Origin: Promethearchaeota archaeon
Lineage (GTDB): Archaea > Asgardarchaeota > Lokiarchaeia > Sigyniarchaeales > SOKP01
Assembly: GCA_030606485.1 (NCBI GenBank)
Contig: JAUWGH010000002.1
Coordinates: forward strand, 450,001-482,000
Direction: 5' to 3'
DNA length: 32,000 nucleotides
Numbering within the stretch: the first letter of the stretch is position 1; every line of letters starts with the position of its first letter. This document shows, piece by piece, positions 6,556 through 25,690 of this stretch. The notes under the pieces are model-generated. The model made no database searches. It had not been told where the DNA came from and saw only the letters and a program-made list of their open reading frames with translations. A program made the position numbers and the translations under genes.

Positions 6556-6564
6556 ATTTTCGAT

Positions 6565-9904: not shown

Positions 9905-9954
9905 TTTATTATTCCTAAATAGTAGATAATATTTTCAAAAATTTGCATTTGAAT

Positions 9955-12900
9955 CTAATAATTATAAGAGCCTTGATTTTCAGGATAAATAAACTCGAAT
10001 TTATTAGTGAGTGATTTATGATTAAGCCATTTTTTTATGTTTTTATCCCAGAGATGACAATCCAATGGATTCGGATGTTTGAATTTATCAAATAAATTAT
10101 TAACAAAAAGATCTCCTTTAACTAAATCAAAAAATAAAAGATAATGTTCTATTTTAAAATAATTGAATAATTGAGTAATAATTTTCTTAAAATGATTGAA
10201 AGCGGAATCTGGTAAATAAAATTTCAAAAATAATCCATTTTCAAATTTAATCATTTTATCTTCTTCTTTAAAATAATATTCCCCCTCTATTTCATAAATG
10301 AATCCATAATTAAGGAAATTAAAAATCTTAATAATTATTTCGATTTGTTCGCGTGTCAAATCTGGAACAATTGCATAAAATTTAAATTTAAGACCCGTAT
10401 TTTCTCTAAGTTTTATTTGGGGAAAAATTAATTTTTTATTAATCAAATCTTTAATGTTATTTAATCTGGATTTATGTCTTAATTTTATCATATCCAAAAA
10501 ATTTTGACCATTTAAATCTATGATATTTTGAAAATCTTGGTCGAATTTTCCTTTAATATTTTTTTCATCTCTTTCAGAAACATTAAAAACTTTACAATCT
10601 ATAGAAGGATCAAAATTTTTATCAAATAATATTTTTTGAACAAATATTTCAAAAGTTTGGTATCCAAAATAAAAGCCATCAGGGCTAATATTAAAATTAA
10701 AATTCAAAATTGGAATGATTTTTTTAACTGAAAATGATAAATATTCATCAATTTCTCTTTTACTTTTTAAAACCCAGTTCAAATATGAGAAATTAGGATT
10801 TTTGGAAGGAAATATATATTTAAAAAGATAAGAATTTGCACTTTCCAATGAACAAGTGTATTTTATGCTCTTGAATCCTAATGGAAATAGCATCTTCCAT
10901 TCAATTTCATTAGGAATACTTGGTTTTATGTATAAGTAAAAATTTTCTAAACCGAATTTTTGATACGAAGGAATAAGTTTAATATTTTCAATATTTTTTG
11001 AATGTTTAATAATGTTTGAAAGATCATCACTTTTTACAAGTTTTTCTTCAAGATTATTGTGTAAATCTTCAATTTCTTGAGAGATTTCTAAATTTAATGT
11101 TATTTCTTTTTTTAATTTTAGATTTTTTGAATAAGTTTCAAAAGAAATTTTTTTAACCAAATCAGTGTTAAAATTAGTGAGTTCTATACTCTCTTCCTTA
11201 TGATATGAAGATATTTTGCGATCTTTAATAAGAGAGATACTAAATTTTGATAATTCATCAAAAAAATCTTTACTATAAAAGAAATCATTATTTTCAACAT
11301 CAAAGAAATTTTCTAAGCTGAAAATTGAAATTATGTATGAATCAATAAATTGTTTAAAGAGAATGAGATCATGATTAAATAATTTGTAAATTAGACCCAA
11401 TAAATTTATTTTTTCATTGTCATTTAACTCAATACAATATAAATATAGAAAAGTGTATTTTTCCCCGGAAATTAGGTCAATGCTTCTATTTATGACTACT
11501 CTTGGAAAAATATCCTTAAGAGAATTAATCTTTTTTTCTGTTGTTACAGAATCCTTTATTAATAAAGTATAAAAAATTGGGCAGATTTTTCTGGCAGAAA
11601 TGGAAGTAATTAAAAATGGAACTGCTCCTGGAGGGTCAGATTGAACAGTTTGAGTTAATCTCGCATCAATATCTTGAAAAGTAATTTTTTTTAATCTATA
11701 CTCCTTTAGGATTTTTTGGATTTTTTGAAATTTTGTAGTATAAATATTTTCTGCTAATTCTTTTTTTGTTAAAATGGCTTCAATCACTTTTAAATTAAAT
11801 ATTTTCAGATTCTCTGATGTTTTAAGTAATTGTAAAAAGTTTTCATATTCACTCTTCTCATGCAGAAAATTAGAATTGTTCATAAAATACACTGAAAATA
11901 AGTTAAATAAATTCTTCTTGAACTGAGAGTAATTATATTCAATATTTTCATCAAACTTTGGACCGATTCCGTTTTGTTCAATGAAATCAAATAGCATAAT
12001 TTCATTTTTTAGTTCTGGGTGAGTTTTTAGAATTTTTTCTGTGAGATCTATTAATTTTAAAAAGAAAGAAATTTGTTCCTTAATATAAAAAAATCCGAAA
12101 TTTTTATTTGAATCGATTAATGTGAGGAATTTTCGTTTTAATTCCGGGTCTTCGTAAAAAATATTCAAAATCTTTTTTAAATCCTTAATAATATTTTTTT
12201 GAGTTAATAAATAACTAAATACATCACTTTTCACTTTCTGTAATTGCTTCCATTTTTCCTCAAAACTAAAACCAGTTGTTGCAAACCATCTAATCCTATT
12301 GAGGAGTATAATATCAAATAGATCCATAACCTTTTCTTCTTTAGAAGTGTATTTTAAAGAAGGAGAAAATATTAAATGTTCGTTAAAATCCTTATCTCCT
12401 CTCAGTAATAACTTTTTATTCAAAATATTTTTTTTAAAGTAATTTAGGTTTAGGAAATTTTCATGGAAAACAAATTTTAACAAAAAAAATTTCTTGATAA
12501 TTCCATAATTAATTAAGGTTTTAAAAAATTTTTTTAAATCATCAATATATTTCATAGGGATTACAAAAATTCCTGTAACTTCAACCCCAAACTTTGATTC
12601 TTGAGTTCTATTTACCCAATAAAATGGTAAATGTTGTAGAATTTTTTGTACCTTATAATTTCCAAGTTGAGGGTTAAAAAATATATAACAATAAACCATA
12701 TTACAAAAATAATACTGCCAATTAATTTGATAATTTGGGGAAATCACATTTTGAGGTAAAAAAGTCTTAAAATACCGATTAAATTTCTTTGGAGTAAAAG
12801 AGGTATTAATTTTTTGCTCTAATTTTAATTTTTTAAACATATTTTCAAAATCCGCTCTTCTCGTATAGCGTTTTGTTATTTGAAAAATACCGTATATTAA

Positions 12901-13497
12901 TGAAAAGAATTCTAATTCATCTTCATTCTCAAAATAACCTTGTATTATGTTTTGTGTCATAATATCGCGAAATAGATTATATTCCACATCGAGATTCAAA
13001 AAAAGAGATGAATGTTTATGAATGTAATCAAATAGATTTTTTAAATTTTTTATTATAAAATCGCCAAATCTAAATTTCCACCATGCATATAAAGGATCTG
13101 TTTTGAAGTAATTTTCCCATTCATTAAAATTCGGAAGTCTATTTAATAGATCTGAAACCTTTACTAACACTATCGTTTTTAACAATGAATAATTCTGTAA
13201 AGGGATTGGTATAAAAAGGTAAAATGACTCTCGTAGGAGAATAAATTTTATTATTTTCTGCATATCTGAATGGATCTGCAGAGTAATTTTTTTATTTTGT
13301 TTGGAAGTTCTTTTAACACCAAAATCAAACCTTTCATTTTCAAAATTTGCTAAGTAATCAATTTTTGAAATAAAAACTTTTTGAGGGTGAATTGATGGTT
13401 TTCTTTTTAGATATTCTTCTAATTCTTCCAAACAATAATTAAACCAATATTCTACATTGTCGGGAGAAATCGTATTTTTAATAAATTCTTCTAGCAT
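9955..13497 (-). CDS. Large hypothetical protein (1180 aa) with about four degenerate Lrp/AsnC-like wHTH-RAM modules
   Basis: Long clean ORF. Repeating pattern: ISPNYQINWQYYFCNMVYCYIFF; VPFLITSISARKICPIFYTLLIK; LIPSYQKFGLENFYLYIK; IFPQIKLRENTGLKFKFYAIV. The CDS is certain; the fold call is an inference. Confidence 0.55.
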   Translation of the reverse strand: MLEEFIKNTISPDNVEYWFNYCLEELEEYLKRKPSIHPQKVFISKIDYLANFENERFDFGVKRTSKQNKKITLQIHSDMQKIIKFILLRESFYLFIPIPLQNYSLLKTIVLVKVSDLLNRLPNFNEWENYFKTDPLYAWWKFRFGDFIIKNLKNLFDYIHKHSSLFLNLDVEYNLFRDIMTQNIIQGYFENEDELEFFSLIYGIFQITKRYTRRADFENMFKKLKLEQKINTSFTPKKFNRYFKTFLPQNVISPNYQINWQYYFCNMVYCYIFFNPQLGNYKVQKILQHLPFYWVNRTQESKFGVEVTGIFVIPMKYIDDLKKFFKTLINYGIIKKFFLLKFVFHENFLNLNYFKKNILNKKLLLRGDKDFNEHLIFSPSLKYTSKEEKVMDLFDIILLNRIRWFATTGFSFEEKWKQLQKVKSDVFSYLLTQKNIIKDLKKILNIFYEDPELKRKFLTLIDSNKNFGFFYIKEQISFFLKLIDLTEKILKTHPELKNEIMLFDFIEQNGIGPKFDENIEYNYSQFKKNLFNLFSVYFMNNSNFLHEKSEYENFLQLLKTSENLKIFNLKVIEAILTKKELAENIYTTKFQKIQKILKEYRLKKITFQDIDARLTQTVQSDPPGAVPFLITSISARKICPIFYTLLIKDSVTTEKKINSLKDIFPRVVINRSIDLISGEKYTFLYLYCIELNDNEKINLLGLIYKLFNHDLILFKQFIDSYIISIFSLENFFDVENNDFFYSKDFFDELSKFSISLIKDRKISSYHKEESIELTNFNTDLVKKISFETYSKNLKLKKEITLNLEISQEIEDLHNNLEEKLVKSDDLSNIIKHSKNIENIKLIPSYQKFGLENFYLYIKPSIPNEIEWKMLFPLGFKSIKYTCSLESANSYLFKYIFPSKNPNFSYLNWVLKSKREIDEYLSFSVKKIIPILNFNFNISPDGFYFGYQTFEIFVQKILFDKNFDPSIDCKVFNVSERDEKNIKGKFDQDFQNIIDLNGQNFLDMIKLRHKSRLNNIKDLINKKLIFPQIKLRENTGLKFKFYAIVPDLTREQIEIIIKIFNFLNYGFIYEIEGEYYFKEEDKMIKFENGLFLKFYLPDSAFNHFKKIITQLFNYFKIEHYLLFFDLVKGDLFVNNLFDKFKHPNPLDCHLWDKNIKKWLNHKSLTNKFEFIYPENQGSYNY

Positions 13498-14293: not shown

Positions 14294-15274
14294 ATGGGAT
14301 TTATTTCTGGATTAAAAGAATTATTAAAAAAAGGAATTTTTGCTTTTATCTTATTATCGTTTATTCTAGCTTGGTTTCTAATCTTGTTCGGAATAACTTT
14401 TATTCCTACTGCAAATTTTCACATTTTTGCAGGGTGGTTTATTGCCATTTTAATTGGATTTAACATTGTTTTATTTATTTTTTCATTTTTTAAATCTGTT
14501 GATAAAATGGGAACAGCTTTAATAATAATTGCATTTATAATTTCATTACCCTTATTAATTATTTTTACTTCAATCGTTGGATTTTTTTTTATATTTTGCT
14601 TCTTCGCAAATCTCATTTTAACATCATTTTTTTACTTTAAAGTTTCAATAGACTCCGCTACTAAAGTAGATGATTATTTATATAAAAAGAAAGGCTCCAG
14701 AAAAGTAACACGAACACTAGAATTTTTAATTTTTGGAATTCTTGATTTTTGGTTATTAATAATCACAGCTAATTTTTTTGTGAGTTTAAACCCAGCAAGC
14801 TTTATCATATTCCAAATTATTTTCTATGTAAATTTAATATTAATAGTCTTTGTAATATTACAACTTTTATTTACAAAAAAATTCGCTGCATATATCACCT
14901 TATTTTTTCTATTATCATTATTTTATATTATTTACATATTTGTTGATATATTAGCTGAATTAATTTTCACTGGTCTTGGAACCTATACTTGGATTTCATT
15001 CTTCATTGATTTAATTCTATTTTTATATATTATTGGGGCGATTTACGACAGAGTTGATTACTTAAAAGAAAAACTCAAAATATTTAGAGCTGATACGATT
15101 GCTTTATTCGTTATAATAATAAAGCTCCTCGTTCAAATTAATGAATTATTGAATTTAGGGGCTCCACCAAATGTCGCTGAAGAATTGATGGTGTTATATG
15201 TATTTATTGCGTTTAATTTGCTGATTGGAATTTATTCGATTTTTGCTCATAAAGAGGGAAAAACTGGAAAATAA
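14294..15274 (+). CDS. Polytopic membrane protein of unknown function (about 9 TM)
   Basis: Hydrophobic segments throughout; no family motif recognised. Confidence 0.7.
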   Translation: MGFISGLKELLKKGIFAFILLSFILAWFLILFGITFIPTANFHIFAGWFIAILIGFNIVLFIFSFFKSVDKMGTALIIIAFIISLPLLIIFTSIVGFFFIFCFFANLILTSFFYFKVSIDSATKVDDYLYKKKGSRKVTRTLEFLIFGILDFWLLIITANFFVSLNPASFIIFQIIFYVNLILIVFVILQLLFTKKFAAYITLFFLLSLFYIIYIFVDILAELIFTGLGTYTWISFFIDLILFLYIIGAIYDRVDYLKEKLKIFRADTIALFVIIIKLLVQINELLNLGAPPNVAEELMVLYVFIAFNLLIGIYSIFAHKEGKTGK

Positions 15275-15344: not shown

Positions 15345-15848
15345 ATGGATGATAGAATTGATGATCTTTACAATAAACTTGGACAATTATTTGTAGCAGT
15401 GGAAAAAATAACTGATGATGTTGCATTAATAAAAAATAATCTTGATACGATTTCTAAGACTAAGGGATCATTTGGTTTAAAAGCGATTGCAAAATCAAGC
15501 CTTCTAAAAGATTTTGAACCTATTGAAGGTATAGGGACTGGAACTAAAAGATATAAATTATTTTTCAGATTTATTAAGGATGAGTGGAAATCAACTGTAA
15601 ATGATTTTCTGATTGGCGTAAAACAACAAGATCGTAGTTCTAATTATGATTTAAAAGCATTGGGTATAAGAATTCATATTAATGATACACGAAAATTACG
15701 ACAATTAGCTAAACAAGTTATTTCACTCCTCCATATTTCATGTGAGATTAATAGTATTGATAGTACTACTATTTTACGTGAGATTATCCAAGAGATAAAC
15801 GCAAAAAGTGATGCTATGGTTAGAGAGATAAGGGAAAAAATTCATTAG
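15345..15848 (+). CDS. Hypothetical protein: N-terminal coiled coil plus possible PC4/PUR-like beta-sheet-helix domain
   Basis: Heptad-like N-terminus (IDDLYNKLGQLFVAVEKITDDVALIK); later alternating beta pattern ending GIRIHINDTRKLRQL. The CDS is solid; the fold is speculative. Confidence 0.6.
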   Translation: MDDRIDDLYNKLGQLFVAVEKITDDVALIKNNLDTISKTKGSFGLKAIAKSSLLKDFEPIEGIGTGTKRYKLFFRFIKDEWKSTVNDFLIGVKQQDRSSNYDLKALGIRIHINDTRKLRQLAKQVISLLHISCEINSIDSTTILREIIQEINAKSDAMVREIREKIH

Positions 15849-16472
15849 CACAAGTAAAAATCTATATATATAATTACAATTTTAGATTCTCTTTATATAT
15901 GATTACTACACTGGAAATCTTAGAATGGCATCATTATTGCACAACATCAATTTGTATTAGCCATCCTTTTGAGATATTGAATTCCATTCTTAGATGATGC
16001 CAAATATTTTTAGCAAATATATCTGAAGTACATATTTAAAGGTCTTAGTTGCCGAGAAGAAGATCAATAAAAAACAAGACTTTTTAAAAAGAATTTTCTT
16101 TAGAGTATCATTTTGAGTTATTTACTACGTCATTTCTTATAGAATATAAAGAGTTTAAATATTATCTGAACATAAATAAAAATTATCAAAGTGAATTTAC
16201 AATATTGTTAACAAAATTATCATGAATAAAATTTTAAAAATTCTCTATAAAGAAATTATAAAACAATAATACTATTCCTTATATCAATTAGTCATTTTAT
16301 AGATCGAGGTTTTTATTAATTTTTTAAATTTTTCACTATTTCTTTCATTGAAATGAAAGATTTTTATATTAAAAAACCGAATATATATCAAAGTTAAAAA
16401 CGAGATTTTAAATAGATTTCCTCTAAGAACTAATTAATCCAATTATAAATTCATCTTAAAAATAATTTAATA

Positions 16473-19400
16473 ATGCCTGATTCGAAGCGTAAAATAAGGC
16501 GCAAATATGTTTTATCTTCAATTATAATTGTTTTCATATTGTTTTCTTGTTTTTATCAGATTAAAAACTCTTATTACTATTCCAGTGAGAATTATAGACC
16601 TATAAACACAAGTAATGGCCATGAACGGATTTTTATTGATGGAGATGCTACTGGAGTAGGTGCCCAAAATTGGACTTATGCGTTACAGCAAAATTGGTGT
16701 ACTGGATCTGGAACTTGGGATGAACCATATATTATAGAGAATAAAAGAATAGATGGTCAGGAAATAGGAAACTGTATTGAAATAAGAGATTCCATAGCTT
16801 ATTTTCAAATAAAGAATTGCACTCTCTATAATTCTAGCATAACGACGTCGGGAATACAATTAACATACGTTGATAATGGAATCATATTAAGCAATAATTG
16901 TTCTTTTAATAATGGTAATGGTATAGATATTTTTATGTGTGATAACAATACCGTAATAAATAATACTGTGAGCAATAACACACTTTCAGGCATAAATTTG
17001 ACTACCTTTAGCCACGATAACAACATTACCGGTAATCTTGTTAAAAATAATTTAAAAGATGGTATAAAAATTGGAAAAGAATTATTTTCAAACTGTAATG
17101 ACAATATCCTTTCTAATAATTCAGTGATATCAAACGATGGTAATGGTATATCGATATTAAGTGATTATAATGATCTTCTTAACAATAGCGTTTTATATAA
17201 TAAATTAAATGGTATTTTTTTGAATCAAAGCCGTTATGGAAATATATGGAAAAATAATTGTTCTTACAATTATGACTCTGGAATTTTAATTGATCGAGGT
17301 GATTATAATAATATTTCAGGTAACGAAATCAGTTATAATTACAAAGGTATTGATATTTCAGGGTTGTGGTTTTGGGAAGAATGTTTAGATAATGAGATCT
17401 CTAATAATAATATACATAATAATAGGGGAGGAGGGATTGAACAAGATTATTGTAAAAATACAATAATTTCAAATAATAACTTTACTAACAACAAATTATA
17501 TGGGGGATATAATAATAATAATACAAAGATTTATAAAAATACTTTCGAAAATAGTGGGATTTACTCACATGATAGCAATTACTCAGTTATCTATGACAAT
17601 AAAATAAACGCTAGTGATGATTATTGTATAAATATAAATCGGGCTTATTATTCCAATATAACGGGAAACACGATATATAATGGCGGCATATATTATGGAG
17701 GTATTCGCATTAATGAATGTAATTCTTCAATTCTTTCTAATAATACTTTAGACTTGAATACAAAAAAGGGAATTTATATATATTTAAGTAATCACACGAC
17801 TTTGACTCAAAACAAAATGTATAATTGTGGTATCAAATTCGAGGATTCGTTAGAAAGCGCTTCTACTTCTAATATTGATGCATCGAATACCATTAATGGT
17901 AACCCTGTGTATTTTTATTATAACAAATCCAACTTAAAACCAATTAATTTTACTGACGCAGGGCAAGTAATAGCGATTTATTGTAATGATTCGATTTTAT
18001 CTAATTTTAACATCAGTTCTATTTTAAGCGGAATTTCAATGCATTTTTGCAAAAACATCTCTATTTCAGAAGTAAATATTAGTGAAAACGATTATGGTAT
18101 TTATCTAAGCCAATGTATTAATATTACGATGAATAATATCACTCTTTCAGATAACGAATATGGAATCTACCTTCCAAACAGTAATAATACAGTCATTTCA
18201 ACGATCACATCTTTATTTAACGAGTACGGTATTATTTGTTATAGAAACCACAATATTACTATAAACGAATGTAATATTAATTATAGCGAATATGGAATTA
18301 TATCATCGGCTTGTAATAATATCAATCTTACTGGCAATACTATAGTCAATTGTGATTATGGTATTTATACAACCTCAAATCGTAATGTCACTTTATGTTC
18401 AAATAGATTATTTAACTGTGGAGTAATATTAAATGATGTTATTTCAAATTTTTTAACTTATAAAATAAATACCTCTAATAAGGTTAATAACAAACCTTTA
18501 TATTTTTATACCAATAAACTTGGACTAAAACCTTTCAATTTTTCTAATGCGGGTCAAATAATATTAGTTAATTGTAATAACTCACGTATTTCGGATGTAA
18601 AAATGTCAAATTGTTCTCGTGGTGTTTCATTACTTTCTTGTAAAAACATTTCTATTTACAATGTTACTTCAATAAATAATATAGATAGGGGTTTTTACTT
18701 AGGTGGAGGTTTTAACAACACTGTTCAAAAGTGTAATTTTTCATATAATTTAATTGGATTATATCTGGGAAATACACATAATAATACAATTTTAGAAACA
18801 AATACATCTCACAACACACAAGTGGGGATATATATTTCTGGAAGTAGAAATATCACTCTTATAGGAAATAGACTAAGTTACGACCTAGTGGGTATTAAGC
18901 TAGATAATAGTTATGATTGCAATCTTACAGATAATAATATGAAAAATTGCGGCATAGAAATTAAGGAATCTATTGACTGGGAAACTTATTCAACAAATTC
19001 TATTGATACAACAAATAAAGTAAATGGAAAAGATGTTTATTATTATTTTAATAAAACTAATCTAAATTCAAATGATTTTATTAACGCAGGTCAAGTGATC
19101 CTTGTCAAATGCAACGACTCCTTAATAAATAACTTAAATATTACAAATATTTCTAATGGAATTTATATGTATTATTGCAATAATCATATTATTTCAAATT
19201 GTCAAATTACAAATAATAATTATGGAATTTATCTATATTTTGGGAATAATTTTTTACTAACAGGAAATACCATAAATCGAAATTTTGTTGGTTTATCGTT
19301 AATCTCTAATAATAGTACAATAACTCAATGTGACTTTATAGAGAACAATCATTCCATTAGTGGAGAAGGAAGCAATAATCTAATTTATAACAATTATATT

Positions 19401-21542
19401 GACGGTAGTGCGTACCTTTGGCCTTCCAACAATTGGAATAATTCTTATGCAGGTAATTATTGGAGCAACTATAGCGGCGTTGATTCTGATAATGATGGAA
19501 TTGGTGATACCCCTTATTTAATTTATGTGACTGGAGCGCCAGAAGTCTATTATGATTATAAACCCCTTATGAATCCACCAAATATAGATACAGACGGAGA
19601 TGGATTATTAAATTCAGAAGAATATGATTTAGGAAATGATGGATATCTAACAAATGTAACCAATCCAGATTCGGATTACGATGGATTAAGTGATTATGAC
19701 GAATGGATAAATCTAGCAAATCCATGGGATAATGACACAGATAATGACAGTATGCCAGATGGATGGGAAGTTTTAAATAGTTTAAATGTTATAGATGGTA
19801 ATGATAATATAACAGACGCAGATAACGATGGAATATCAAATCTTAACGAGTTTTTTTACGGGACCAATCCTCAAATGGCGGATACAGATCTGGATGGAAT
19901 GCCAGATGGATGGGAATTAGATAATTCTTTAAATTTATTTGCAAATGATGCCATGGAAGATCCTGACCTAGATACAATACTAAATTATTACGAATACTTG
20001 AATGGAACAGATCCAAGGAACAACGATACAGAATTTGATGGGATGCCTGACGGATGGGAGATTAATAACTCATTAGACCCTTTAAATAATGACGCTATGA
20101 GCGATGCGGATAACGATCAGTTGGAAAATATTTACGAATTTTTGAACGGGACAGACCCTCATAACGACGATTCTGATGGTGATACTATACTAGATGGTAT
20201 TGAGGTTGGTTTACACACAGATCCTTTAGACGGTTTCTGGTTTCCGATGCCAAATTTGAAAATTTCAAGTTTTAGTGTAAGTGATGTTTACGAGGGTCAG
20301 GCATTTATTTTAAATTTTACGATTACTAATAATGGTATCTGGAAAGCAAATGGGATTATACTTTCGATTCGATGTGAAGCGCTGAATTTAACGCTATATG
20401 AAAATATGGCTGAGCCATTTGATTTAGAAGTTAACAAGTCAAAAAATTTCCTCATAGATTGTACCTCAATATCTACAGCTGGAATTTTTGTACTAACATT
20501 GGATCTCGATCCAGGAAATTTATTAAACGAAACCTATAGTTCTCCTGATGGTTCGTATCGTTCTGATTGGACAGAGGACAATATAAAACAAATAGAAATG
20601 CAAATTATCGAGGGGGATGGAGGTATTGCAGTAGAGATGTTTATCATTGTTGTTTCTGTAGCAGGGGTTATTATTGGTATGATAGGTCTTACAATTTTAG
20701 TAAGACCAAAAATAAAAAAAATCATATATTCAAAAAACCAACGGAACAAAGCTAAAGCAGAACTCGAAGACTTCGAGTTTAAAGTTCGAAATTTTATAAG
20801 AGAACAACTGGAAGAATTCTACGGAGCAGAATGGTGGGAAAAAGGAATACCAGAATATATTAGATTAGGTGTAGAAAATAAAATAAGAACCGAACAAATT
20901 AAAGCGCCAAAAATGAAAGTTCAAAATATTAATTATCTCGACTTCAATCATTATTTTCTAATTATTAATGAAAAAGAAAATTGGGACAATATTTTTTCAG
21001 ATGTTTTTCAAGATAAAAATAAACTCGCAGAAAATTTCGAGAATTTAAGAGTATTTAAGAACAATATTTCTCAAAATGTAGCTACTTCCCAGGAAATAGA
21101 TGCGTATCTGTTTTATATTTATGGCATAACAACCTTTTTTACTAAAGGTTTTAATGTATTTCTTAGTTATTCGACATTGGATTCAGAATATTTTCAAATC
21201 TCAGAGATCGTGTCCCGCCTTGAGACTTATCCAAAAATGGATAAGATTTTCTTTTGGGAAGCAGATAGTGGAGAAAATATTGTTGAATATATGGAAAGGA
21301 TTTTAAACATTAGCAAAGTGTTTGTTATGTTTTGTTCTGAAAACTCTATAAAATCAAAAGCGGTAGAAGATGAATGGCAAGCTGCTTTTCAATTAAGAAA
21401 AAAGGGATTGATGAAAATAGTACCCGTGTATGAAGATGACCAATTTATCCCTAAATTATTAATGCCACTTTTAAATGTGAAATTTTCTAAAGACGATTTT
21501 GATGGGTTTATCGACAAACTCTATGAAGAAATATTAAGGTAA
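16473..21542 (+). CDS. Single-pass surface receptor: signal anchor - NosD/right-handed beta-helix - DxDxDG Ca-binding repeats - CARDB - TM - Swt1-like HEPN (degenerate) - TIR domain
   Basis: Basic plus hydrophobic N-terminus; N/I/C-rich parallel beta-helix repeats; about 10 DxDxDG repeats; PNLKI...TITNNG...LDPGNLLNET (CARDB); TM about 20628-20703 followed by RPKIKK; FEFKVRNFI...WWEKGIP...YLDF (Swt1-HEPN); C-terminal NVFLSYS...FWE.DSG...VFVMFCSENSIKSKAVEDEW...IVPV (TIR, about 21150-21542). Confidence 0.9.
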   Translation: MPDSKRKIRRKYVLSSIIIVFILFSCFYQIKNSYYYSSENYRPINTSNGHERIFIDGDATGVGAQNWTYALQQNWCTGSGTWDEPYIIENKRIDGQEIGNCIEIRDSIAYFQIKNCTLYNSSITTSGIQLTYVDNGIILSNNCSFNNGNGIDIFMCDNNTVINNTVSNNTLSGINLTTFSHDNNITGNLVKNNLKDGIKIGKELFSNCNDNILSNNSVISNDGNGISILSDYNDLLNNSVLYNKLNGIFLNQSRYGNIWKNNCSYNYDSGILIDRGDYNNISGNEISYNYKGIDISGLWFWEECLDNEISNNNIHNNRGGGIEQDYCKNTIISNNNFTNNKLYGGYNNNNTKIYKNTFENSGIYSHDSNYSVIYDNKINASDDYCININRAYYSNITGNTIYNGGIYYGGIRINECNSSILSNNTLDLNTKKGIYIYLSNHTTLTQNKMYNCGIKFEDSLESASTSNIDASNTINGNPVYFYYNKSNLKPINFTDAGQVIAIYCNDSILSNFNISSILSGISMHFCKNISISEVNISENDYGIYLSQCINITMNNITLSDNEYGIYLPNSNNTVISTITSLFNEYGIICYRNHNITINECNINYSEYGIISSACNNINLTGNTIVNCDYGIYTTSNRNVTLCSNRLFNCGVILNDVISNFLTYKINTSNKVNNKPLYFYTNKLGLKPFNFSNAGQIILVNCNNSRISDVKMSNCSRGVSLLSCKNISIYNVTSINNIDRGFYLGGGFNNTVQKCNFSYNLIGLYLGNTHNNTILETNTSHNTQVGIYISGSRNITLIGNRLSYDLVGIKLDNSYDCNLTDNNMKNCGIEIKESIDWETYSTNSIDTTNKVNGKDVYYYFNKTNLNSNDFINAGQVILVKCNDSLINNLNITNISNGIYMYYCNNHIISNCQITNNNYGIYLYFGNNFLLTGNTINRNFVGLSLISNNSTITQCDFIENNHSISGEGSNNLIYNNYIDGSAYLWPSNNWNNSYAGNYWSNYSGVDSDNDGIGDTPYLIYVTGAPEVYYDYKPLMNPPNIDTDGDGLLNSEEYDLGNDGYLTNVTNPDSDYDGLSDYDEWINLANPWDNDTDNDSMPDGWEVLNSLNVIDGNDNITDADNDGISNLNEFFYGTNPQMADTDLDGMPDGWELDNSLNLFANDAMEDPDLDTILNYYEYLNGTDPRNNDTEFDGMPDGWEINNSLDPLNNDAMSDADNDQLENIYEFLNGTDPHNDDSDGDTILDGIEVGLHTDPLDGFWFPMPNLKISSFSVSDVYEGQAFILNFTITNNGIWKANGIILSIRCEALNLTLYENMAEPFDLEVNKSKNFLIDCTSISTAGIFVLTLDLDPGNLLNETYSSPDGSYRSDWTEDNIKQIEMQIIEGDGGIAVEMFIIVVSVAGVIIGMIGLTILVRPKIKKIIYSKNQRNKAKAELEDFEFKVRNFIREQLEEFYGAEWWEKGIPEYIRLGVENKIRTEQIKAPKMKVQNINYLDFNHYFLIINEKENWDNIFSDVFQDKNKLAENFENLRVFKNNISQNVATSQEIDAYLFYIYGITTFFTKGFNVFLSYSTLDSEYFQISEIVSRLETYPKMDKIFFWEADSGENIVEYMERILNISKVFVMFCSENSIKSKAVEDEWQAAFQLRKKGLMKIVPVYEDDQFIPKLLMPLLNVKFSKDDFDGFIDKLYEEILR
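17823..19150 (+). repeat. Three tandem internal beta-helix super-repeats in the receptor ectodomain
   Basis: NCG....SN.(I/V)N.K..Y(F/Y)Y.NK..L....F..AGQ.I...CN.S units start at 17823, 18414 and 18945 (aa 451, 648, 825). Confidence 0.8.
19482..20230 (+). repeat. About 10 DxDxDG acidic calcium-binding (thrombospondin type 3-like) repeats
   Basis: DSDNDG, DTDGDG, DSDYDG, DTDNDS, DADNDG, DTDLDG, DPDLDT, DTEFDG, DADNDQ, DSDGDT, several alternating with MPDGWE and GT.P motifs. Confidence 0.85.
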
Positions 21543-21700
21543 AAATTTACAGTATTCTATTACAATACTTTTTGCTTCATTGGATTTTTATTTTATCCAA
21601 AATATGTAAGATTTTTATAATAAATCGACCAATATTTTCATAAATAAATAAAGCGATTTCAATAGGATTTATATTAAGAAATCAAATGGGTATTTTACAA

Positions 21701-21960
21701 TTGGAAATTAAGAAACTGATTTAAAAATGTTAAAAAATTAATAGATTATTATGAAGATGATTGGTGGGATAATGGGATTCGTAATTTGGAAAGTAGACAG
21801 TGGTGAAAGTGTTGTTAAATTGATGAAGGAAGCTTTAACCATAAGTTATGTGTTTATACTTTTTTGTTCAGAAAATTCAAAAAAGTCTGAGGCTGTAAAA
21901 GGTGAATGACAAGCAGTTTTTGATTATGGAGGAAATGGATAATTTTCCTATTTTACTGCC
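21701..21960 (+). pseudogene. Decayed HEPN-TIR paralog, N-terminal part of TIR
   Basis: 21772-21942 reads MGFVIWKVDSGESVVKLMKEALTISYVFILFCSENSKKSEAVKGE*QAVF, against FFWEADSGENIVEYMERILNISKVFVMFCSENSIKSKAVEDEWQAAF in the intact TIR (TGA at 21907 replaces Trp). An upstream shifted frame reads DYYEDDWWDNGI, like EFYGAEWWEKGI of the HEPN. Confidence 0.85.
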
Positions 21961-21965
21961 ATTTT

Positions 21966-24482
21966 TTAAATATTCTCAAAGAATTTTAAAATTTCTTGCC
22001 CAAAAACTCTAGACATGATTTCCGCCATTCTTTTTTCATTTCTATAACTTCTAACTTGTTGAAGATTTTTAAAATCATCCATTAATTCTTCTTCACATAT
22101 TTTAGTATAATCTTCTATTTTTTTTGTTAAAGATTTTGAAGGTTTTTCAAAAAGAAAAAAGAATATTCTAAAATCTTCTGTTCTAAAAGGAGTCATCGTT
22201 ATAGCACCTCCTTCAGCGGATAGGATAGGAATCTCTCCAAATCCAATTTCACTAGCAAAACTTTGAATTGCTGATAAAAGACCAGACATTAAATCACCTG
22301 GTTGAGATATATCTGAGAAATCCTTTTCATAGATACTTGCTCCATAAATATGTTGAATTAAAAGTTTTCGAAGATTTTCGATATCAGGATCAGTAGTAAA
22401 TGGTTTTGTAAGAAACTCATGGATTTCTTCTGAAGTATTATTGATTACTTTAAATAGTCTTTTAGGTTTTTCAAGATGCTTAATGTTATTCTTTTCTAAC
22501 CAATTTTTATCATTAATCAATTCTGATGCTTCGCGTCCACTATTTTTTATAATAGCCACTTGTGCTCCAAAAGCAATTGCCATTCGATATTCAAGTGCAG
22601 CAATTTTTCCTCCATTAATTCCAATTAATTTTACATTACTATGATCTAATCCAGATTTTAAAATATCATACCAATATTGTAATGCTTCAAGAATACTAAA
22701 ATCTGTTCCTATTGTTGAGTGAATCTTTTTATAACGTTCGTCAATCTTGATATCATAAGGTAGTAGATGTGGAATGTATCCAATAGTTTTTATAGTTTCG
22801 GGATATTTTTCTTGAATATCACCAACAATTCTACAAATTCCTGATTTAGTACCTCCAGATATAATTGTTCCTTTAAAATCACAAAACCCATCAGTAAGAG
22901 TATTTTTGTAGTTTTGGAGCAGTTTTTCTAATCTTGCATCAGTCCCACCTGCTATAATTACAATGGGTTCTTTAAGATCATTTTCTTTTATTTCCATACA
23001 ATTATCCAATTTCTTTAGAGCATCACTGTACATTTTTTGATTGTATGAGAGATTTTTATTAGGATGAAACAGTATCCCTAATAATAATAAACTTCTGATT
23101 AATTCAATCCCAGGCATTTGGTTATGAATATTTTTAAGTTCATCTAAAGTATTTAGAGTTGTATCAATCATCCACATATTCTGACTATGATTTATTCCAT
23201 TTAAGTAATAAATAAGACTGTCGTCTAACTTACCAAGAAAAAACGAAAAAAGTCCCATATCAAAAAATGCCCAAGGTATCTCAACTTTAACTTCTATTTG
23301 ATTTAATCTTCTTTCAATACCTTTTTGAATCAATTCTTTATTATATTTAATATGTTTTAAATTTCCAGTTTTCTGAATTTTCATTATTAGGTAATTTAAT
23401 AAAGGATATGGATGCGAAGGATCAGCCTTTAAAGCTTTTTTGTAATATTTATATGCTTTTTCATAATCTTTAAGAATTTTATAAGATCCACCTAAGGAAG
23501 CAAAAGCATCTGAATCCATTGGATTTTTTTCAACTGCTGTTTTCAAATATGATTGCCCCTCTACATATCTTGAACTTCTTGGATTATTTTTATTTTTTTT
23601 ATATAATGCTATTCCAAGATCTCGTAAAACGGACGCTTGTTTTAAATCAGGATACTTTTTCCATTCATCTATTTTTAAAATATTTTCAATAATCACTATA
23701 GTTTTATCCCATTCATTAATTGCCATTGCTAACTTAGCGATTTTATGAGCAATATCGAAATCGTTTTTATTCGCAGAATATACTAATTCTAATTTTTTTA
23801 TCTCATCTTTAATTCTTTCATTGGACATGTAAGCTCCATAGCTAGATTCGTAATCACGCATTTTCTTTATTAGAGTATTTAAGGATATATCAGCAGTCTC
23901 TAAAAGCGCTTTTATTCGATTAAATTCTCGAATATATGGTTTAGGGATTTTAAATTCAGTTTTATAAAGACTTCCATATTTATTTACTTCCCAGCCATGT
24001 TGCAAGAAAGTACGTATTTGAATTTCTGCTTTTAAACCAAAAATTTCGTCGGGAACATGTAATTCTAATCTCTTATAGAGATCTGATTTGGGATTGAGTT
24101 CTACAATAAAATTTTTCAGTAATTCTTGAAGTTCTAATTTATCGGTTTTACTTTTTTCATTTTCTTCAATTATAATAAAATGTTTTTGCATTAACTTGCT
24201 GACAGTATTTAATTCGTCCAAATTGGGTAATATTATTTTTAATCCAATTAAATCATTCATTTCTTCAGTTACATTTGAATTATTTATATTTGAATTAAAA
24301 ATTTCATCAATAAAACCATAAATAGTCTTTGTCTTTCCCTCAATCATGAATTCAGAAGAATAACTTCCAATAATATGAGTCAGAATTTTTTCTAATATTT
24401 CACAATATTGTTCATAAAGAGGAAGTGAGTAACAGTAAGAATTTATTTGACTTTTGATAAAATTAAGCGTTTTTTCATCCAT
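21966..24482 (-). CDS. Multidomain protein: RelA/SpoT-like nucleotidyltransferase (degenerate) - TPR - SLOG - longin-like domain
   Basis: DLIGLKII and AEIQIRTFLQHGWE (RelA/SpoT); TPRs (DAFASLGGSYK...KAYKYYKKAL); IIAGGT, IISGGTKSGI...VG, TIGYIP, GINGG..AALE...A, SGR (SLOG, aa about 504-690); IQHIYGASIYEKDF...DLMSGLLSAIQSFASEI (longin-like, aa about 703-838). Confidence 0.8.
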   Translation of the reverse strand: MDEKTLNFIKSQINSYCYSLPLYEQYCEILEKILTHIIGSYSSEFMIEGKTKTIYGFIDEIFNSNINNSNVTEEMNDLIGLKIILPNLDELNTVSKLMQKHFIIIEENEKSKTDKLELQELLKNFIVELNPKSDLYKRLELHVPDEIFGLKAEIQIRTFLQHGWEVNKYGSLYKTEFKIPKPYIREFNRIKALLETADISLNTLIKKMRDYESSYGAYMSNERIKDEIKKLELVYSANKNDFDIAHKIAKLAMAINEWDKTIVIIENILKIDEWKKYPDLKQASVLRDLGIALYKKNKNNPRSSRYVEGQSYLKTAVEKNPMDSDAFASLGGSYKILKDYEKAYKYYKKALKADPSHPYPLLNYLIMKIQKTGNLKHIKYNKELIQKGIERRLNQIEVKVEIPWAFFDMGLFSFFLGKLDDSLIYYLNGINHSQNMWMIDTTLNTLDELKNIHNQMPGIELIRSLLLLGILFHPNKNLSYNQKMYSDALKKLDNCMEIKENDLKEPIVIIAGGTDARLEKLLQNYKNTLTDGFCDFKGTIISGGTKSGICRIVGDIQEKYPETIKTIGYIPHLLPYDIKIDERYKKIHSTIGTDFSILEALQYWYDILKSGLDHSNVKLIGINGGKIAALEYRMAIAFGAQVAIIKNSGREASELINDKNWLEKNNIKHLEKPKRLFKVINNTSEEIHEFLTKPFTTDPDIENLRKLLIQHIYGASIYEKDFSDISQPGDLMSGLLSAIQSFASEIGFGEIPILSAEGGAITMTPFRTEDFRIFFFLFEKPSKSLTKKIEDYTKICEEELMDDFKNLQQVRSYRNEKRMAEIMSRVFGQEILKFFENI

Positions 24483-24888
24483 AAAATTCTCATCTTTTAG
24501 AATAAAATTTTTTAAATTTTAATTGAATCTCCTTTTTAATAAATCTTTAAGATATTATAAATTTCTTACAATATAATTGAGAATGACTAATTATTAAATC
24601 TTTTCTTCAAATGAAATCATGTAAATAACGCACTCTTAAGTATATATTTATGATATCCAAATAATACATGTTTATGTTCTTTTTCTCCACATTTTTTCAG
24701 AAACTCGTAAACACGTTTAAGTTATGTTGAAAATATAAATAGCAAGAAATTTGATATCTTAAATATTTTATAATTTCAGAAAGGAAATAAATTCTTAATC
24801 AACTCTTTTTTGGCAGAAATTTTTAAATGCCTACAATAAGTTGTAAATCCAATTTTTTTAGTGATTAAAAAGGATAAGAAGACCGAAA

Positions 24889-24915
24889 TAAAAAAAAATT
24901 AAAAAAAAAAGTAAA
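24889..24915 (-). terminator. Oligo-U tract, possible archaeal intrinsic terminator
   Basis: Minus strand reads ...ACTTTTTTTTTTTAATTTTTTTTATTT about 55 nt after the TIR-remnant stop (24968) and about 215 nt after the GTPase stop; weak evidence in an AT-rich genome. Confidence 0.3.
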
Positions 24916-24967
24916 AGTTAAAAGCTCGAACTTTCAAGTCACCGTTTTAGTAAATTTCTTTAGCATT

Positions 24968-25060
24968 CTACCATAGAAATTCCTTATAGAGTTTCTTAAT
25001 AAACCAATCGAAATCATCTATAGTAAACTCAACATTTAAAAGCGGCCAGAAAAAAAACTC
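24968..25060 (-). pseudogene. Decayed TIR paralog, C-terminal end
   Basis: Minus strand reads EFFFWPLLNVEFTIDDFDWFIKKLYKEFLW* (TAG at 24968-24970), against MPLLNVKFSKDDFDGFIDKLYEEILR* at the end of the intact TIR; no start codon and an upstream in-frame stop. Confidence 0.85.
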
Positions 25061-25129
25061 TTAGAACTAAAGAATGAATAAATGTTATTATTGATTGCAA
25101 TACGGTTGTTTTTATTATTATGGTTATTA

Positions 25130-25690
25130 TTATTGTGAGATTGAACGAGACTTATTAAATTTATTATATAACTCTTTAATAATTGCATGGAATCCTTGGG
25201 AAACTCGAGTCCCTGTTAATGCTGATGTTCTGTAATATCCAAGAAAGTTTCGCTTTTTTACTATTTTCAGAACCTTATTATCGTTTAAATTTTTCTCATC
25301 AACTAAATCAACTTTATTGCCAAATAATACGGTAGGTATATTGCCACAATAATTTTTAATATTATCATGCCAATTCGTAATATGTTTAAAACTTTCTTGA
25401 CCAAGATCATTTTCTTCAAGAGAATATACGATAATAGCAGCTTTACTCTCTTTATAGAAAGAGGGGCGTAAAAAATTAAAATCATCTTGTCCGGCTATAT
25501 CCCAAAATAAAAGTTTGAAATAATTGCCATCTATTTCCTCTTCATAGCTAAAAAATTGCGCTCCTATGGTTTTAATATATTCCTTTTGAAACCTACCTTT
25601 TGTAAATTTAGTAATTAATGATGTTTTTCCTACTGCTCCGTCTCCTACAACTGATATTTTAAATGTAAATTTATCGCCGCCTTTATTCAT
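25130..25690 (-). CDS. Rab-like small GTPase (Ras superfamily; eukaryotic signature protein)
   Basis: G1 GDGAVGKTS, G2 YIKTIG, G3 WDIAGQ, G4 NKVD, G5 TSAL; no C-terminal Cys prenylation motif. Confidence 0.92.
   Translation of the reverse strand: MNKGGDKFTFKISVVGDGAVGKTSLITKFTKGRFQKEYIKTIGAQFFSYEEEIDGNYFKLLFWDIAGQDDFNFLRPSFYKESKAAIIVYSLEENDLGQESFKHITNWHDNIKNYCGNIPTVLFGNKVDLVDEKNLNDNKVLKIVKKRNFLGYYRTSALTGTRVSQGFHAIIKELYNKFNKSRSISQ

Follow-up and report, generated by a model that had tools for sequence, protein, structure and literature searches.

A predicted single-pass TIR receptor with a beta-helix ectodomain in a Loki-type Asgard archaeon

INTRODUCTION

TIR domains are known to signal in bacterial cytosolic defence (Thoeris, SPARTA, CBASS and Pycsar effectors), in plant NLRs and in the animal TLR/IL-1R receptors. 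To our knowledge, among these systems only the animal receptors link a TIR domain to an extracellular sensor across the membrane. Membrane-anchored bacterial TIR proteins of the Rst_2TM_1TM_TIR type are small, lack an ectodomain of more than 1300 amino acids and are partnered with a 2-TM protein. Genes of this type are reported to be enriched in Asgard genomes (PMC11291487). In type I Thoeris, the effector has a SLOG domain to which a cADPR isomer made by the TIR protein binds (preprint 10.64898/2025.12.03.692087).

Here we analyse P0001, a gene coding for a 1689 amino acid protein in a 32 000-nucleotide stretch of archaeal DNA (hereafter the window). From the sequence of the window it had been predicted that this protein has the architecture of a Toll-like receptor, i.e. 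a solenoid ectodomain, a single transmembrane (TM) helix and, in the cytoplasm, a TIR domain, and that the likeness is more probably convergent than ancestral. It had also been proposed that the ectodomain could bind glycans or surfaces and trigger clustering of the TIR domains, and that the protein may bear on the origins of innate immune signalling. The features of the locus are collected in Table 1.

Table 1. Features of the receptor gene and of its surroundings (positions in the window)
Feature	Position	Strand	Basis
Whole receptor gene P0001, 1689 aa	16473..21542	+	single ORF, no stops; collinear orthologs P0002, P0196
Basic N-terminus with hydrophobic segment, aa 1-32, either a signal peptide or an anchor	16473..16568	+	hydropathy
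Beta-helix ectodomain, aa ~41-1000	16593..19472	+	NosD, Beta_helix Pfam matches
TSP3-type calcium-binding repeats, aa 1001-1235	19473..20177	+	TSP3_bac 30 bits, 5 stretches
Juxtamembrane CARDB-like beta-sandwich, weak, aa 1236-1382	20178..20618	+	CARDB 16.5 bits, below cut-off
Single TM helix, aa 1383-1410, then RPKIKK	20619..20702	+	hydropathy, charge
Cytoplasmic (predicted) helical domain, aa 1411-1555, Swt1-like HEPN without Rx4-6H	20703..21137	+	HEPN_Swt1, PDC-M34B
TIR domain, aa 1556-1689	21138..21539	+	TIR_2 profile, AF2 fold
E1634 codon, catalytic-Glu position of TIR NADases	21372..21374	+	alignment
Relic, middle of a second TIR gene	21775..21939	+	genome-search matches; tblastn 53% identity
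RelA/SpoT-like nucleotidyltransferase - TPR - SLOG (LSDAT_prok) - C-terminal domain, 838 aa	21966..24482	-	Pfam; candidate signal receiver/effector
Relic, 3' end of a TIR gene (~29 codons with the stop)	24968..25060	-	translation ...WPLLNVEFTIDDFDWFIKKLYKEFLW, then stop

RESULTS

Integrity of the receptor gene

The window derives from a metagenome-assembled genome and other runs cover the receptor gene in fragmented contigs, which could suggest a pseudogene or an assembly chimera in which ectodomain and tail were mis-joined. However, the reading frame is open, and a contig from an independent cold-seep run (X6) bridges positions 20340-21965, so that the end of the ectodomain, the TM helix, the HEPN-like domain and the TIR domain all lie on one contig; a contig of a further run (X2) spans 19855-20709 of the gene. 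Two ENA orthologs from other assemblies (P0002 and P0196; the two lengths are 1689 and 1712 aa) are collinear with P0001 and 94-98% identical to it in every region, and the same layout is common to at least 66 homologs. Since independent assemblies have a collinear gene, P0001 is not a chimera; the ectodomain-tail junction is real and the artefact explanation is effectively refuted. P0001 is an intact gene of a Loki-type (Promethearchaeota) Asgard archaeon. The public runs listed include no RNA data set that carries it. Scans of the window for tRNAs and Rfam families gave zero matches each.

Ectodomain and membrane topology

The domain order predicted from the sequence was largely borne out. 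In Pfam, NosD matches with 198 bits in 8 stretches and Beta_helix with 194 bits in 7; together they extend over residues ~60-1000, where a beta-helix of about 1000 amino acids had been proposed. The repeats total about 960 amino acids, include three modules repeated within the ectodomain, which begin at aa 475, 672 and 851, and carry the repeated motif N[GN][NK][PD][VL]Y[FY]Y. The predicted calcium-binding repeats are matched by TSP3_bac and are 19% Asp, with seven DxDxD[GNSQ] motifs read directly from the sequence. The CARDB domain, which was also part of the prediction, scores below the cut-off in P0001 (22.7 bits being needed), whereas the equivalent juxtamembrane module of the homolog P0073 passes it with 23.8 bits.

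Hydropathy analysis revealed exactly two hydrophobic segments in P0001 (aa 12-30 and 1386-1410). The first has a Kyte-Doolittle (KD) peak of 2.15, is preceded by six Lys/Arg residues and has a counterpart in 49 of the 66 long homologs with a TM helix in the tail; it may be a cleaved signal peptide or the uncleaved signal anchor initially proposed. The second (KD peak 2.76) is preceded by six Asp/Glu residues and followed by eight Lys/Arg within 24 residues, beginning with RPKIKK, in agreement with the predicted single TM helix and basic stop-transfer sequence. One TM helix, located 176-428 amino acids ahead of the C-terminus, is present in 66 of 71 long homologs, and all but one of these 66 (65/66) obey the positive-inside rule, with more Lys/Arg after the helix than before it. 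Because of this charge bias, the HEPN-TIR tail is predicted to be cytoplasmic, against a topology that would place the TIR domain outside the cell.

The helical domain of the tail

A HEPN domain had been proposed between the TM helix and the TIR domain. The match to HEPN_Swt1 straddles the cut-off in P0001 (22.8-28.3 bits, depending on the piece scanned, versus 27.5) and covers only positions 8-86 of the 115 of the profile; a match at E <= 0.01 was obtained for 33 of 39 family tails. The PADLOC candidate PDC-M34B also matches this domain (E 7.6e-13), which forms seven helices at high pLDDT in the AF2 model of the tail, and a profile search against solved structures returned chance-level matches only (eL31 and coiled coils). 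It lacks the HEPN nuclease motif Rx4-6H, a loss that the original prediction had overlooked: the sequence reads LRVFKNNISQ in P0001, and across the family alignment (A1) the Arg position varies (R/S/K/T/Q) and there is no conserved His. Since the motif is absent and unconserved in the family, the domain is probably catalytically dead and a spacer or assembly domain.

The TIR domain

That the C-terminal domain is a TIR domain was confirmed both by profile and by fold. TIR_2 (PF13676) spans residues 1562-1683 with 54-60 bits for a cut-off of 28, TIR (PF01582) likewise passes its own cut-off in a scan of the tail by itself, and a TIR profile is matched by all 39 family tails. With a single sequence AF2 modelled the tail (aa 1376-1689) at pLDDT 41, and with an alignment of 39 sequences a usable model was obtained (pLDDT 87, pTM 0.80). 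Foldseek assigned the TIR fold to it with a probability of 1.00, TIR matches took up the fold-search lists, and an ESM Atlas shape search with the tail found generic TIR clusters only (archaea, bacteria and rotifers). Fold comparison gave Z-scores of 12.6-14.5 for MyD88, RPS4, Hydra TRR-2, IL-18Rbeta and ThsB, the first three being at 14-14.5, and of 15.5 for Cat1 (rmsd 1.6 A over 115 residues). Cat1, a CRISPR-associated TIR protein (PDB 9mud), is the nearest solved TIR both in sequence, where the family profile finds it at E 0.0016, and in structure; it differs in being activated by cA4 via a CARF domain and in forming filaments, whereas the input of P0001 is presumed to be extracellular.

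In alignments, residue E1634 takes the catalytic position in alphaC and falls on the Glu of CWDEL in Cat1 and of CLDEL in AtTIR (3jrn), within an S..S....DE motif that P0001 shares with Cat1 and other NADase TIRs (SARM1, SPARTA and AbTir). The TIR of P0001 looks catalytic, with a predicted NADase site at E1634, although a conserved Glu is no guarantee of NADase activity in TIR domains (PMC7075850). The motifs that mark animal signalling TIRs are box 2 (RDxxPG) and box 3 (FW) (PMC7075850). Neither was found on direct reading of the P0001 TIR: the BB-loop region reads FFWEADSGENIV and the last helix contains no FW. The TIR of P0001 is of the prokaryotic type, as both boxes are missing and the solved TIR nearest to it is a CRISPR-associated one from bacteria.

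The TIR could nevertheless act as a non-catalytic assembly platform, as in TLR/MyD88 signalling, if dimerisation by a ligand recruited other TIR proteins, including small soluble ones of the same clade serving as relays. MAL and MyD88 TIR filaments are indeed among the top Foldseek matches, with E-values near those of NADase TIRs, the family includes TIR-only proteins of 128-133 amino acids (P0134, P0153 and P0192; some may be gene fragments), and the HEPN-like domain, having apparently lost catalysis, may serve only assembly. However, 39/39 tails (alignment A1) keep the catalytic-position Glu and the adjacent Asp-Glu-Trp without variation, as expected of an enzyme, the boxes of animal signalling TIRs are absent, and the neighbourhoods inspected revealed no death-domain or kinase partner; we judge this explanation improbable. 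The predicted complex of two tail copies (score 0.00, obtained without controls) speaks neither for nor against self-association.

Comparison with animal receptors

Pfam matches, hydropathy and charge bias together support the proposed layout of solenoid ectodomain, single TM helix and cytoplasmic TIR. Like animal Toll-like/IL-1 receptors, P0001 has an N-terminal targeting segment, a large solenoid or repeat ectodomain, one TM helix and a C-terminal TIR that is predicted to be cytoplasmic, and it belongs to a multigene family in which the tail is conserved while the ectodomains diverge. It differs from them in several respects: (i) their ectodomain consists of LRR or Ig domains, whereas that of P0001 is a right-handed NosD beta-helix followed by TSP3 and CARDB-like regions, and no LRR family was matched there in Pfam at E <= 0.1, (ii) a HEPN-like domain of ~145 amino acids, probably dead, is inserted between TM helix and TIR, (iii) the TIR keeps the NADase Glu without box 2 and box 3 and (iv) no MyD88-like adaptor was seen. 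Because there are neither LRRs nor box 2/3 motifs, the resemblance is best regarded as convergent and not as membership of the TLRs, which is also what had been preferred at the outset. A TIR tethered by one TM helix is a feature shared with the Rst_2TM_1TM_TIR defence genes.

A family with one tail and many ectodomains

The suggestion to look for the same tail on different ectodomains gave a positive result: the TM-tail-TIR module is found with N-termini consisting of NosD beta-helix, FG-GAP/PQQ propeller, SBP_bac_5, Peripla_BP_6/ANF_receptor, PKD or 4-TM regions. This sharing of one tail by different ectodomains is the best support for the receptor reading. P0001 belongs to a large multigene receptor family which, judging from the named records (all of them Asgard MAGs), is restricted to Asgard archaea. 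Five relatives have 6-13 copies per genome, whereas the genome of P0001 has just one intact copy, so that P0001 is dispensable or replaceable.

A mainly structural surface protein (an adhesin, an S-layer-associated beta-helix or a glycan-processing protein), with a tail used for anchoring or turnover and a TIR without signalling role, would be consistent with the N-rich ectodomain and its 56 NxS/T sequons, which recall archaeal surface glycoproteins and suggest that the beta-helix may be glycosylated, and also with TIR-less NosD/beta-helix surface genes adjoining family members (an 812-aa gene in locus L006 and a 314-aa gene in L009). Yet it is the tail that is best conserved (54-62% identity versus 29-43% over long alignments for the ectodomain), it is common to unrelated ectodomains including classical ligand-binding SBP folds, and a 280-aa module of two domains with an invariant residue at the active site is more than an anchor would need. 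The structural explanation is thus very improbable, and we retain the receptor reading.

Asgard genomes abound in beta-helix surface proteins, and these are not necessarily sensors of ligands. Public annotation labels the family by ectodomain only ("NosD domain-containing", "ABC transporter substrate-binding protein"), which makes it easy to overlook. None of the named TIR systems in PADLOC (E <= 0.01) or among the NCBIfam defence models matches the tail, the sole defence-model matches being that of PDC-M34B to the helical domain and a far sub-threshold one to retron-TIR. An incomplete literature search found no paper mentioning a TIR domain together with Lokiarchaeota; an earlier description is possible.

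A linked RelA/SpoT-TPR-SLOG gene

The original prediction had overlooked a pairing of TIR with SLOG, which is apparent from a conserved genetic link to the adjacent gene (RelA/SLOG in what follows), which codes for a RelA/SpoT-like protein with a domain of the nucleotide-sensing SLOG type. Its full-length orthologs are 45-50% identical to it, and in the two orthologs tested the LSDAT_prok SLOG domain scores above the cut-off. Twelve relatives could be assessed, and in 11 of them the RelA/SLOG ortholog lies immediately downstream of a TIR-family gene of the same orientation. The relatives with this linkage come from two or three genera of a single family and do not count as independent cases. 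The TIR proteins encoded upstream differ in their N-termini (a 1907-aa beta-helix protein, one of 986 aa, a 4-TM protein of ~834 aa and one of 686 aa). The 671-aa RelA/TPR/SLOG paralogs have no TIR gene within 4 kb upstream at the three loci with that much sequence.

In the window, P0001 and the RelA/SLOG gene are adjacent but convergent, and two TIR relics flank the latter. In one of them, TGA replaces the Trp that follows the catalytic Glu (read directly); the other lies 486 bp upstream of the RelA/SLOG start, a distance similar to the spacing of the two genes in relatives. A rearrangement broke the pairing and left the two relics. Since the original upstream TIR gene is wrecked and P0001 is convergent, the coupling of P0001 to RelA/SLOG rests here on proximity and on one relative (G206, locus L009), in which the nearest TIR gene, 2.5 kb upstream of RelA/SLOG, codes for a HEPN-TIR beta-helix receptor.

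At the end of the 838-aa protein, no longin domain was matched in Pfam at E <= 1, and an Atlas feature search gave weak leads only (0.80-0.83), including a Roadblock/LAMTOR2 cluster. Three neighbours were considered as parts of the system and rejected, namely a Ras-family GTPase gene (25130-25690) and the upstream ORFs 14294-15274 and 15345-15848, all absent near RelA/SLOG orthologs in the loci of 20 relatives. A 526-aa coiled-coil gene that comes after HEPN-TIR receptors in relatives was likewise rejected as part of this locus, its ortholog (39% identity) being on another contig of this genome.

The arrangement in relatives, a catalytic-Glu TIR paired with a SLOG-enzyme fusion protein, resembles that of Thoeris types I and III (ThsB TIR and SLOG effector). 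The differences are that the Thoeris TIR is a soluble cytoplasmic phage sensor whereas P0001 is a large membrane protein predicted to face outwards, that the SLOG domain here is of the LSDAT_prok/TRPM type with RelA/SpoT-like and TPR domains in place of SIR2 as output, and that in the window the two genes converge, with the original TIR partner being degraded.

Alternatively, in a receptor with unchanged TIR chemistry, the TIR could be a terminal suicide or dormancy effector that on triggering drains NAD+, as SARM1 and SPARTA do, with no messenger involved and with a RelA/SLOG neighbour unrelated to P0001. The invariant catalytic Glu fits this explanation, as do the structural matches to NAD+-depleting Cat1, SARM1 and SPARTA and the convergent genes in the window; many family members, moreover, have no RelA/SLOG gene nearby, homologs of the latter being found in 31/135 genomes as opposed to 87/134 genomes of the same taxonomic family with a TIR-family match. 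Against it stand the 11/12 linkage of the four-domain orthologs to TIR-family genes with divergent N-termini and the established role of Thoeris SLOG domains as sensors of TIR products. We consider pure NAD+ drainage unlikely.

DISCUSSION

The reading that we prefer, to which we give about an even chance, is that P0001 is an outside-in receptor whose clustered TIR domains cleave NAD+ and signal to a SLOG sensor, in a Thoeris-like manner but triggered at the cell surface. It is built on the architecture, the topology indicated by charge bias, the TIR fold with its Glu, the loss of the HEPN motif, the modularity of the family and the SLOG linkage in relatives; we infer the ligand, clustering, NADase activity, messenger and output, and whether the role is in defence or in general sensing. 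Outside the cell, the beta-helix, the calcium repeats and a CARDB-like stalk would be displayed. The TM helix would run on into a long juxtamembrane helix of the dead HEPN-like domain, holding the TIR in the cytoplasm. Binding of an extracellular ligand or surface (a virus, a neighbouring cell or a polymer) may then cluster or re-orient the tails, upon which E1634 would come to lie within an active site built by the TIR domains, which would then cleave NAD+. An ADP-ribose-derived product and/or the fall in NAD+ could be read by the SLOG domain of the RelA/SpoT-TPR-SLOG protein, and its nucleotidyltransferase domain might change the growth state via alarmone synthesis or a toxSAS-like activity.

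A broader proposal is that Asgard archaea of the Loki lineage possess germline-encoded single-pass receptors in which swappable ectodomains are joined to one TIR module that signals through an NAD+-derived messenger to SLOG-RelA/SpoT proteins, which would be the first prokaryotic case of outside-in TIR signalling. We offer it tentatively, as a possible but somewhat doubtful generalization. The candidate pathway would have three parts: the receptor tail, the NAD+-derived product and the SLOG-RelA/SpoT protein. If true, a Thoeris-like pathway would be triggered from outside the cell in the lineage closest to eukaryotes. An Asgard family that couples TIR to an extracellular ectodomain would mean that such receptor logic had an origin independent of metazoans, or one predating them.

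Integrity of the receptor gene

The genome carrying the receptor gene (G000) is assembled in 13 contigs totalling 3.75 Mb, with a completeness rating of 100%; G+C content of the window is ~25–30%. Public runs containing window DNA are cold-seep and marine-sediment metagenomes. In a source-like run (X1) a single 22.5-kb contig is identical across 16400–25104. One contig from marine sediment (run X2) spans 19855–20709, and an independent cold-seep run from another study (X6) has one spanning 20340–21965, i.e. ectodomain end, TM, HEPN, TIR and stop codon. The original prediction had raised the possibility of a chimera at the ectodomain-tail junction. Since the X6 contig bridges this junction, and since orthologs in two ENA assemblies (P0002, 1689 aa; P0196, 1712 aa; 93–100% identity per region) are collinear, there is no chimera; the gene is not an assembly artefact, an explanation whose probability we consider negligible.

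In X2 and X6, the receptor gene (16400–21965) lies in many short, numerously differing contigs and the neighbouring RelA/SpoT-TPR-SLOG gene (RelA/SLOG; 21932–25104) on single ~3-kb contigs. This fragmentation over the receptor gene may reflect strain-level receptor diversity. One X6 contig links the TIR (21401) with the relic downstream of it (21920), a join of the kind that would be expected either from recombination between the two TIR copies or from a relative without the intervening 518 bp.

Cytoplasmic tail

The terminal TIR proposed for the receptor protein, P0001, is well supported: TIR_2 matches residues 1562–1683 with 54–60 bits (cut-off 28), and PF01582 is likewise above cut-off. The structure of the tail (aa 1411–1689) was predicted with confidence (pLDDT 87.4, pTM 0.80) from 39 aligned family tails (A1; columns 65% identical on average). 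The model comprises two domains: one is helical (tail residues 1–143), and its first helix, of 47 residues, adjoins the TM; the other is alpha/beta (tail residues 150–279). The latter superposes on solved TIRs: Cat1 (Z 15.5; rmsd 1.6 Å over 115 residues), MyD88 (Z 14.5), RPS4 (Z 14.5), Hydra TRR-2 (Z 14.0) and ThsB (Z 12.6); Foldseek matches of the tail model are MAL, MyD88, SPARTA and SARM1 (E ~2e-4). By sequence, Cat1 and AtTIR of Arabidopsis are the closest TIRs of solved structure; when P0001 is aligned with either, its motif S-x-x-S-x-A-V-E-D-E-W pairs E1634 with the catalytic Glu (CWDEL/CLDEL). Neither E1634 nor W1635 varies (39/39 tails). That the TIR acts as a non-catalytic, TLR-like scaffold seems to us quite improbable.

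The HEPN assignment is weaker than originally stated. HEPN_Swt1 scores about at cut-off in P0001 and matches 33 of the 39 tails at E <= 0.01; the Rx4-6H motif is absent. Because its site reads LRVFKNNISQ in P0001 and neither Arg nor His is kept in the 39 tails, we read the helical domain as a putative nuclease-dead spacer or assembly domain. It also matches the PADLOC candidate family PDC-M34B (E 7.6e-13).

Ectodomain and membrane topology

Both the beta-helix and the Ca-binding repeats of the original prediction were recovered: NosD (198 bits) and Beta_helix (194 bits) repeats cover P0001 residues ~60–1000 in Pfam searches, with three internal modules starting at aa 475, 672 and 851, and residues 1001–1235 (19% Asp) contain TSP3_bac (30 bits in five stretches) and seven DxDxD[GNSQ] motifs. 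The CARDB-like juxtamembrane piece of P0001 is weak and under cut-off (16.5 bits); the equivalent module of a homolog, P0073, passes (23.8 bits). P0001 has exactly two hydrophobic segments, aa 12–30, preceded by six K/R, and aa 1386–1410, preceded by acidic residues and followed by eight K/R. On the basis of these segments and their flanking charges, the predicted topology is N-in (or cleaved), ectodomain out and C-in, which agrees with the proposed single TM, basic stop-transfer and cytoplasmic TIR. In 66 of 71 long homologs one TM lies 176–428 aa ahead of the C-terminus, with positive charge on its C-terminal side in 65 of these 66.

The receptor family

Searching with the tail retrieved 1236 cluster representatives at E <= 1e-3 (126 at E <= 1e-30), nearly all with the TIR at the very C-terminal end. 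As envisaged originally, the HEPN-TIR tail occurs in Asgard archaea on other ectodomains: the full TM-HEPN-TIR tail (50–60% identity) is found on NosD beta-helices and FG-GAP/PQQ propellers in proteins of 928–2956 aa, among which the TIR alone, with other linkers (60–74% identity), is joined to beta-helices, SBP_bac_5, Peripla_BP_6/ANF_receptor, PKD/Ig ectodomains or a 4-TM region with an ArnB_C-like domain. The tail (54–62% identity) is more conserved than the ectodomain (29–43% in long alignments). Solute-binding-protein ectodomains are classical ligand sensors. Finding them joined to the same tail argues more strongly than anything else for a family of receptors, as opposed to anchored structural proteins; that P0001 is mainly a structural surface protein is very unlikely.

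Named relatives are all from Asgard MAGs; they carry the label Promethearchaeota/Promethearchaeia, apart from a few Odin-, Hermod- or Hodarchaeota. When a single genome of each prokaryotic species was scanned for sequence patterns, 53 loci were recovered, all in Asgard MAGs; the motifs used are clade-specific, so that the scan shows the presence of the clade and not its absence. Matches at E <= 1e-10 occur in 110 of 400 genomes in the phylum; the taxonomic family to which the window belongs accounts for 87 of these, out of 134 genomes. Five relatives carry 6–13 copies each (all candidates scored), often as same-strand arrays. G000 has one intact copy and two relics, plus one unrelated TIR_2 match on contig 4 (31 bits, within a 693-aa ORF), the sole other such match in the genome.

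Linkage of TIR genes to a RelA/SpoT-TPR-SLOG gene

The RelA/SLOG protein contains a RelA_SpoT nucleotidyltransferase domain (38.8 bits), TPRs, an LSDAT_prok-type SLOG (32.2 bits against a cut-off of 25.4; C-terminal half scanned) and a further C-terminal domain of ~170 aa without family assignment. This last domain exists as its own ORF in some relatives (G224:C7, G268:C47), and a longin/roadblock identity is a weak Atlas lead. Of 135 genomes in the family, 31 carry homologs (E <= 1e-20), and ~15 of these homologs span most or all of the protein at 45–50% identity.

In 20 RelA/SLOG loci from relatives, domains were placed by tblastn. Twelve four-domain orthologs have enough upstream contig sequence, and directly upstream of 11 of them is a same-strand TIR-family gene: in nine the TIR match ends ~130–750 bp ahead of the first RelA/SLOG match, in one the TIR is broken and 1.7 kb upstream, and in G206 a HEPN-TIR beta-helix receptor lies 2.5 kb upstream, separated from RelA/SLOG by a 526-aa coiled-coil gene. 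The lone exception, G217, has no TIR in 1.5 kb of upstream sequence. Since the upstream proteins differ widely (a 1907-aa beta-helix, 986 aa, a ~834-aa 4-TM protein, 686 aa), the shared element is the TIR itself. A shorter, 671-aa paralog without the C-terminal domain has no TIR within 4 kb upstream at the three loci with that much sequence. The linkage is suggestive, the genomes being kin of two or three genera, and is not statistically proven.

The 526-aa protein, soluble and with no Pfam family, is encoded downstream of HEPN-TIR receptors in several relatives, inside the receptor-RelA/SLOG module (75–85% identity among three compared); the G000 ortholog (39% identity) is unlinked to the receptor locus. 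At relative locus L007, a same-strand array comprises a beta-helix HEPN-TIR receptor, the 526-aa gene, an SBP_bac_5 protein, three further TIR proteins (503, 991 and 986 aa) and last the RelA/TPR/SLOG gene. The array resembles a cluster of receptor genes that closes with the putative signal receiver.

In the window, two non-overlapping relics of a single TIR gene, on opposite strands, flank the RelA/SLOG gene. In the plus-strand relic a TGA replaces the Trp following the catalytic Glu; the minus-strand relic precedes the RelA/SLOG start by 486 bp, which is similar to the TIR-RelA/SLOG distance in relatives. The arrangement fits a ~3.1-kb inversion with one breakpoint within a second TIR gene whose 5' part was also lost, and the ancestral order, on one strand, would be receptor, second TIR gene, RelA/SLOG. 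The SLOG protein's dedicated TIR partner is thus dead in G000, with P0001 the last intact family member.

Features of the window and of related loci
Feature	Position	Strand	Remarks
Defence-type gene	5596–7209	+	upstream of receptor
Defence-type genes	8822–13497	-	upstream of receptor
Receptor gene (P0001)	16473–21542	+	uninterrupted frame, 1689 codons
Relic, middle of a TIR	21775–21939	+	between receptor stop and RelA/SLOG gene; ...DSGESVV..FILFCSENSKKSEAVKGE*QAVF
RelA/SLOG gene	21966–24482	-	838 aa; convergent with receptor gene
Relic, C-terminal ~29 residues of a TIR, with stop	24968–25060	-	WPLLNVEFTIDDFDWFIKKLYKEFLW*
Ras/Rab-like small GTPase	25130–25690	-	Ras 147 bits; beside minus-strand relic
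Enoyl-CoA hydratase and 3-hydroxyacyl-CoA dehydrogenase genes	26866–28532		under G+C rise
TIR_2 match, contig 4	G000:C4:232453–232722		
526-aa gene	L006:15547–17127		
526-aa gene	L007:14904–16484		
526-aa gene	L009:15225–16805		
526-aa gene	L013:750–2330		
526-aa gene, G000 ortholog	G000:C2:445285–446865		
L007 array	G216:C34, ~69.6–93 kb		same strand

Other genes in the window

The Ras/Rab-like GTPase was not found near RelA/SLOG orthologs in the 20 relatives' loci, and for this reason its adjacency here is probably incidental. Upstream of the receptor are an AAA_15/AAA_21 ATPase (best PADLOC matches AbiLi, AriA, GajA and Old), followed by a 214-aa ORF without family, and an N6_N4 DNA methylase adjoining a 1180-aa ORF, possibly its restriction partner, which has no match in Pfam, PADLOC or NCBIfam. 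G+C rises to 0.43 at 27001–28000, compared with ~0.25–0.30 elsewhere.

Proposed mechanism and relation to known systems

The family combines a modular ectodomain, predicted to face outward, with one TM and an inward catalytic-type TIR accompanied by a dead HEPN-like domain, and is genetically linked to a SLOG-RelA/SpoT protein. TIR NADases require self-association for active-site formation (SARM1, plant TIRs, AbTir and Cat1). In type I Thoeris, a cADPR isomer made by the TIR binds the effector's SLOG domain (10.64898/2025.12.03.692087). In the mechanism we propose, contact with a ligand or surface would cluster the receptors, the clustered TIRs would assemble, cleaving NAD+, and the SLOG domain would sense a product of ADPR type and switch the RelA/SpoT-like enzyme. 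We give this chain as a whole about an even chance. Depletion of NAD+ alone, with no messenger, is an unlikely alternative to this signalling chain. The physiological role may be antiviral or anti-competitor defence, or partner or nutrient sensing; defence-type genes are present in the window and the neighbourhoods of homologs are largely metabolic.

P0001 resembles TLRs in overall layout; however, it is not a TLR, since it has no LRRs, box 2 or box 3, keeps the NADase Glu and has the additional HEPN-like domain. It shares with Thoeris the TIR-SLOG pairing, but differs in its transmembrane sensor and RelA/SpoT output. A recent systematic Thoeris survey, based on defence-island scanning, deals with operons of TIR and effector genes, and its available passages mention no TIR protein that has an extracellular part (10.64898/2025.12.03.692087). 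In the open literature searched, we came across no account of TIR domains from Lokiarchaeota; in two Asgard defensome papers (PMC11291487, PMC13700489) TIR appears only in defence-system name lists and references, the former listing a 2TM/TIR system among those commoner in Asgard genomes. Nucleotide signalling by TIRs is of a known kind; what would differ here is the predicted extracellular input.
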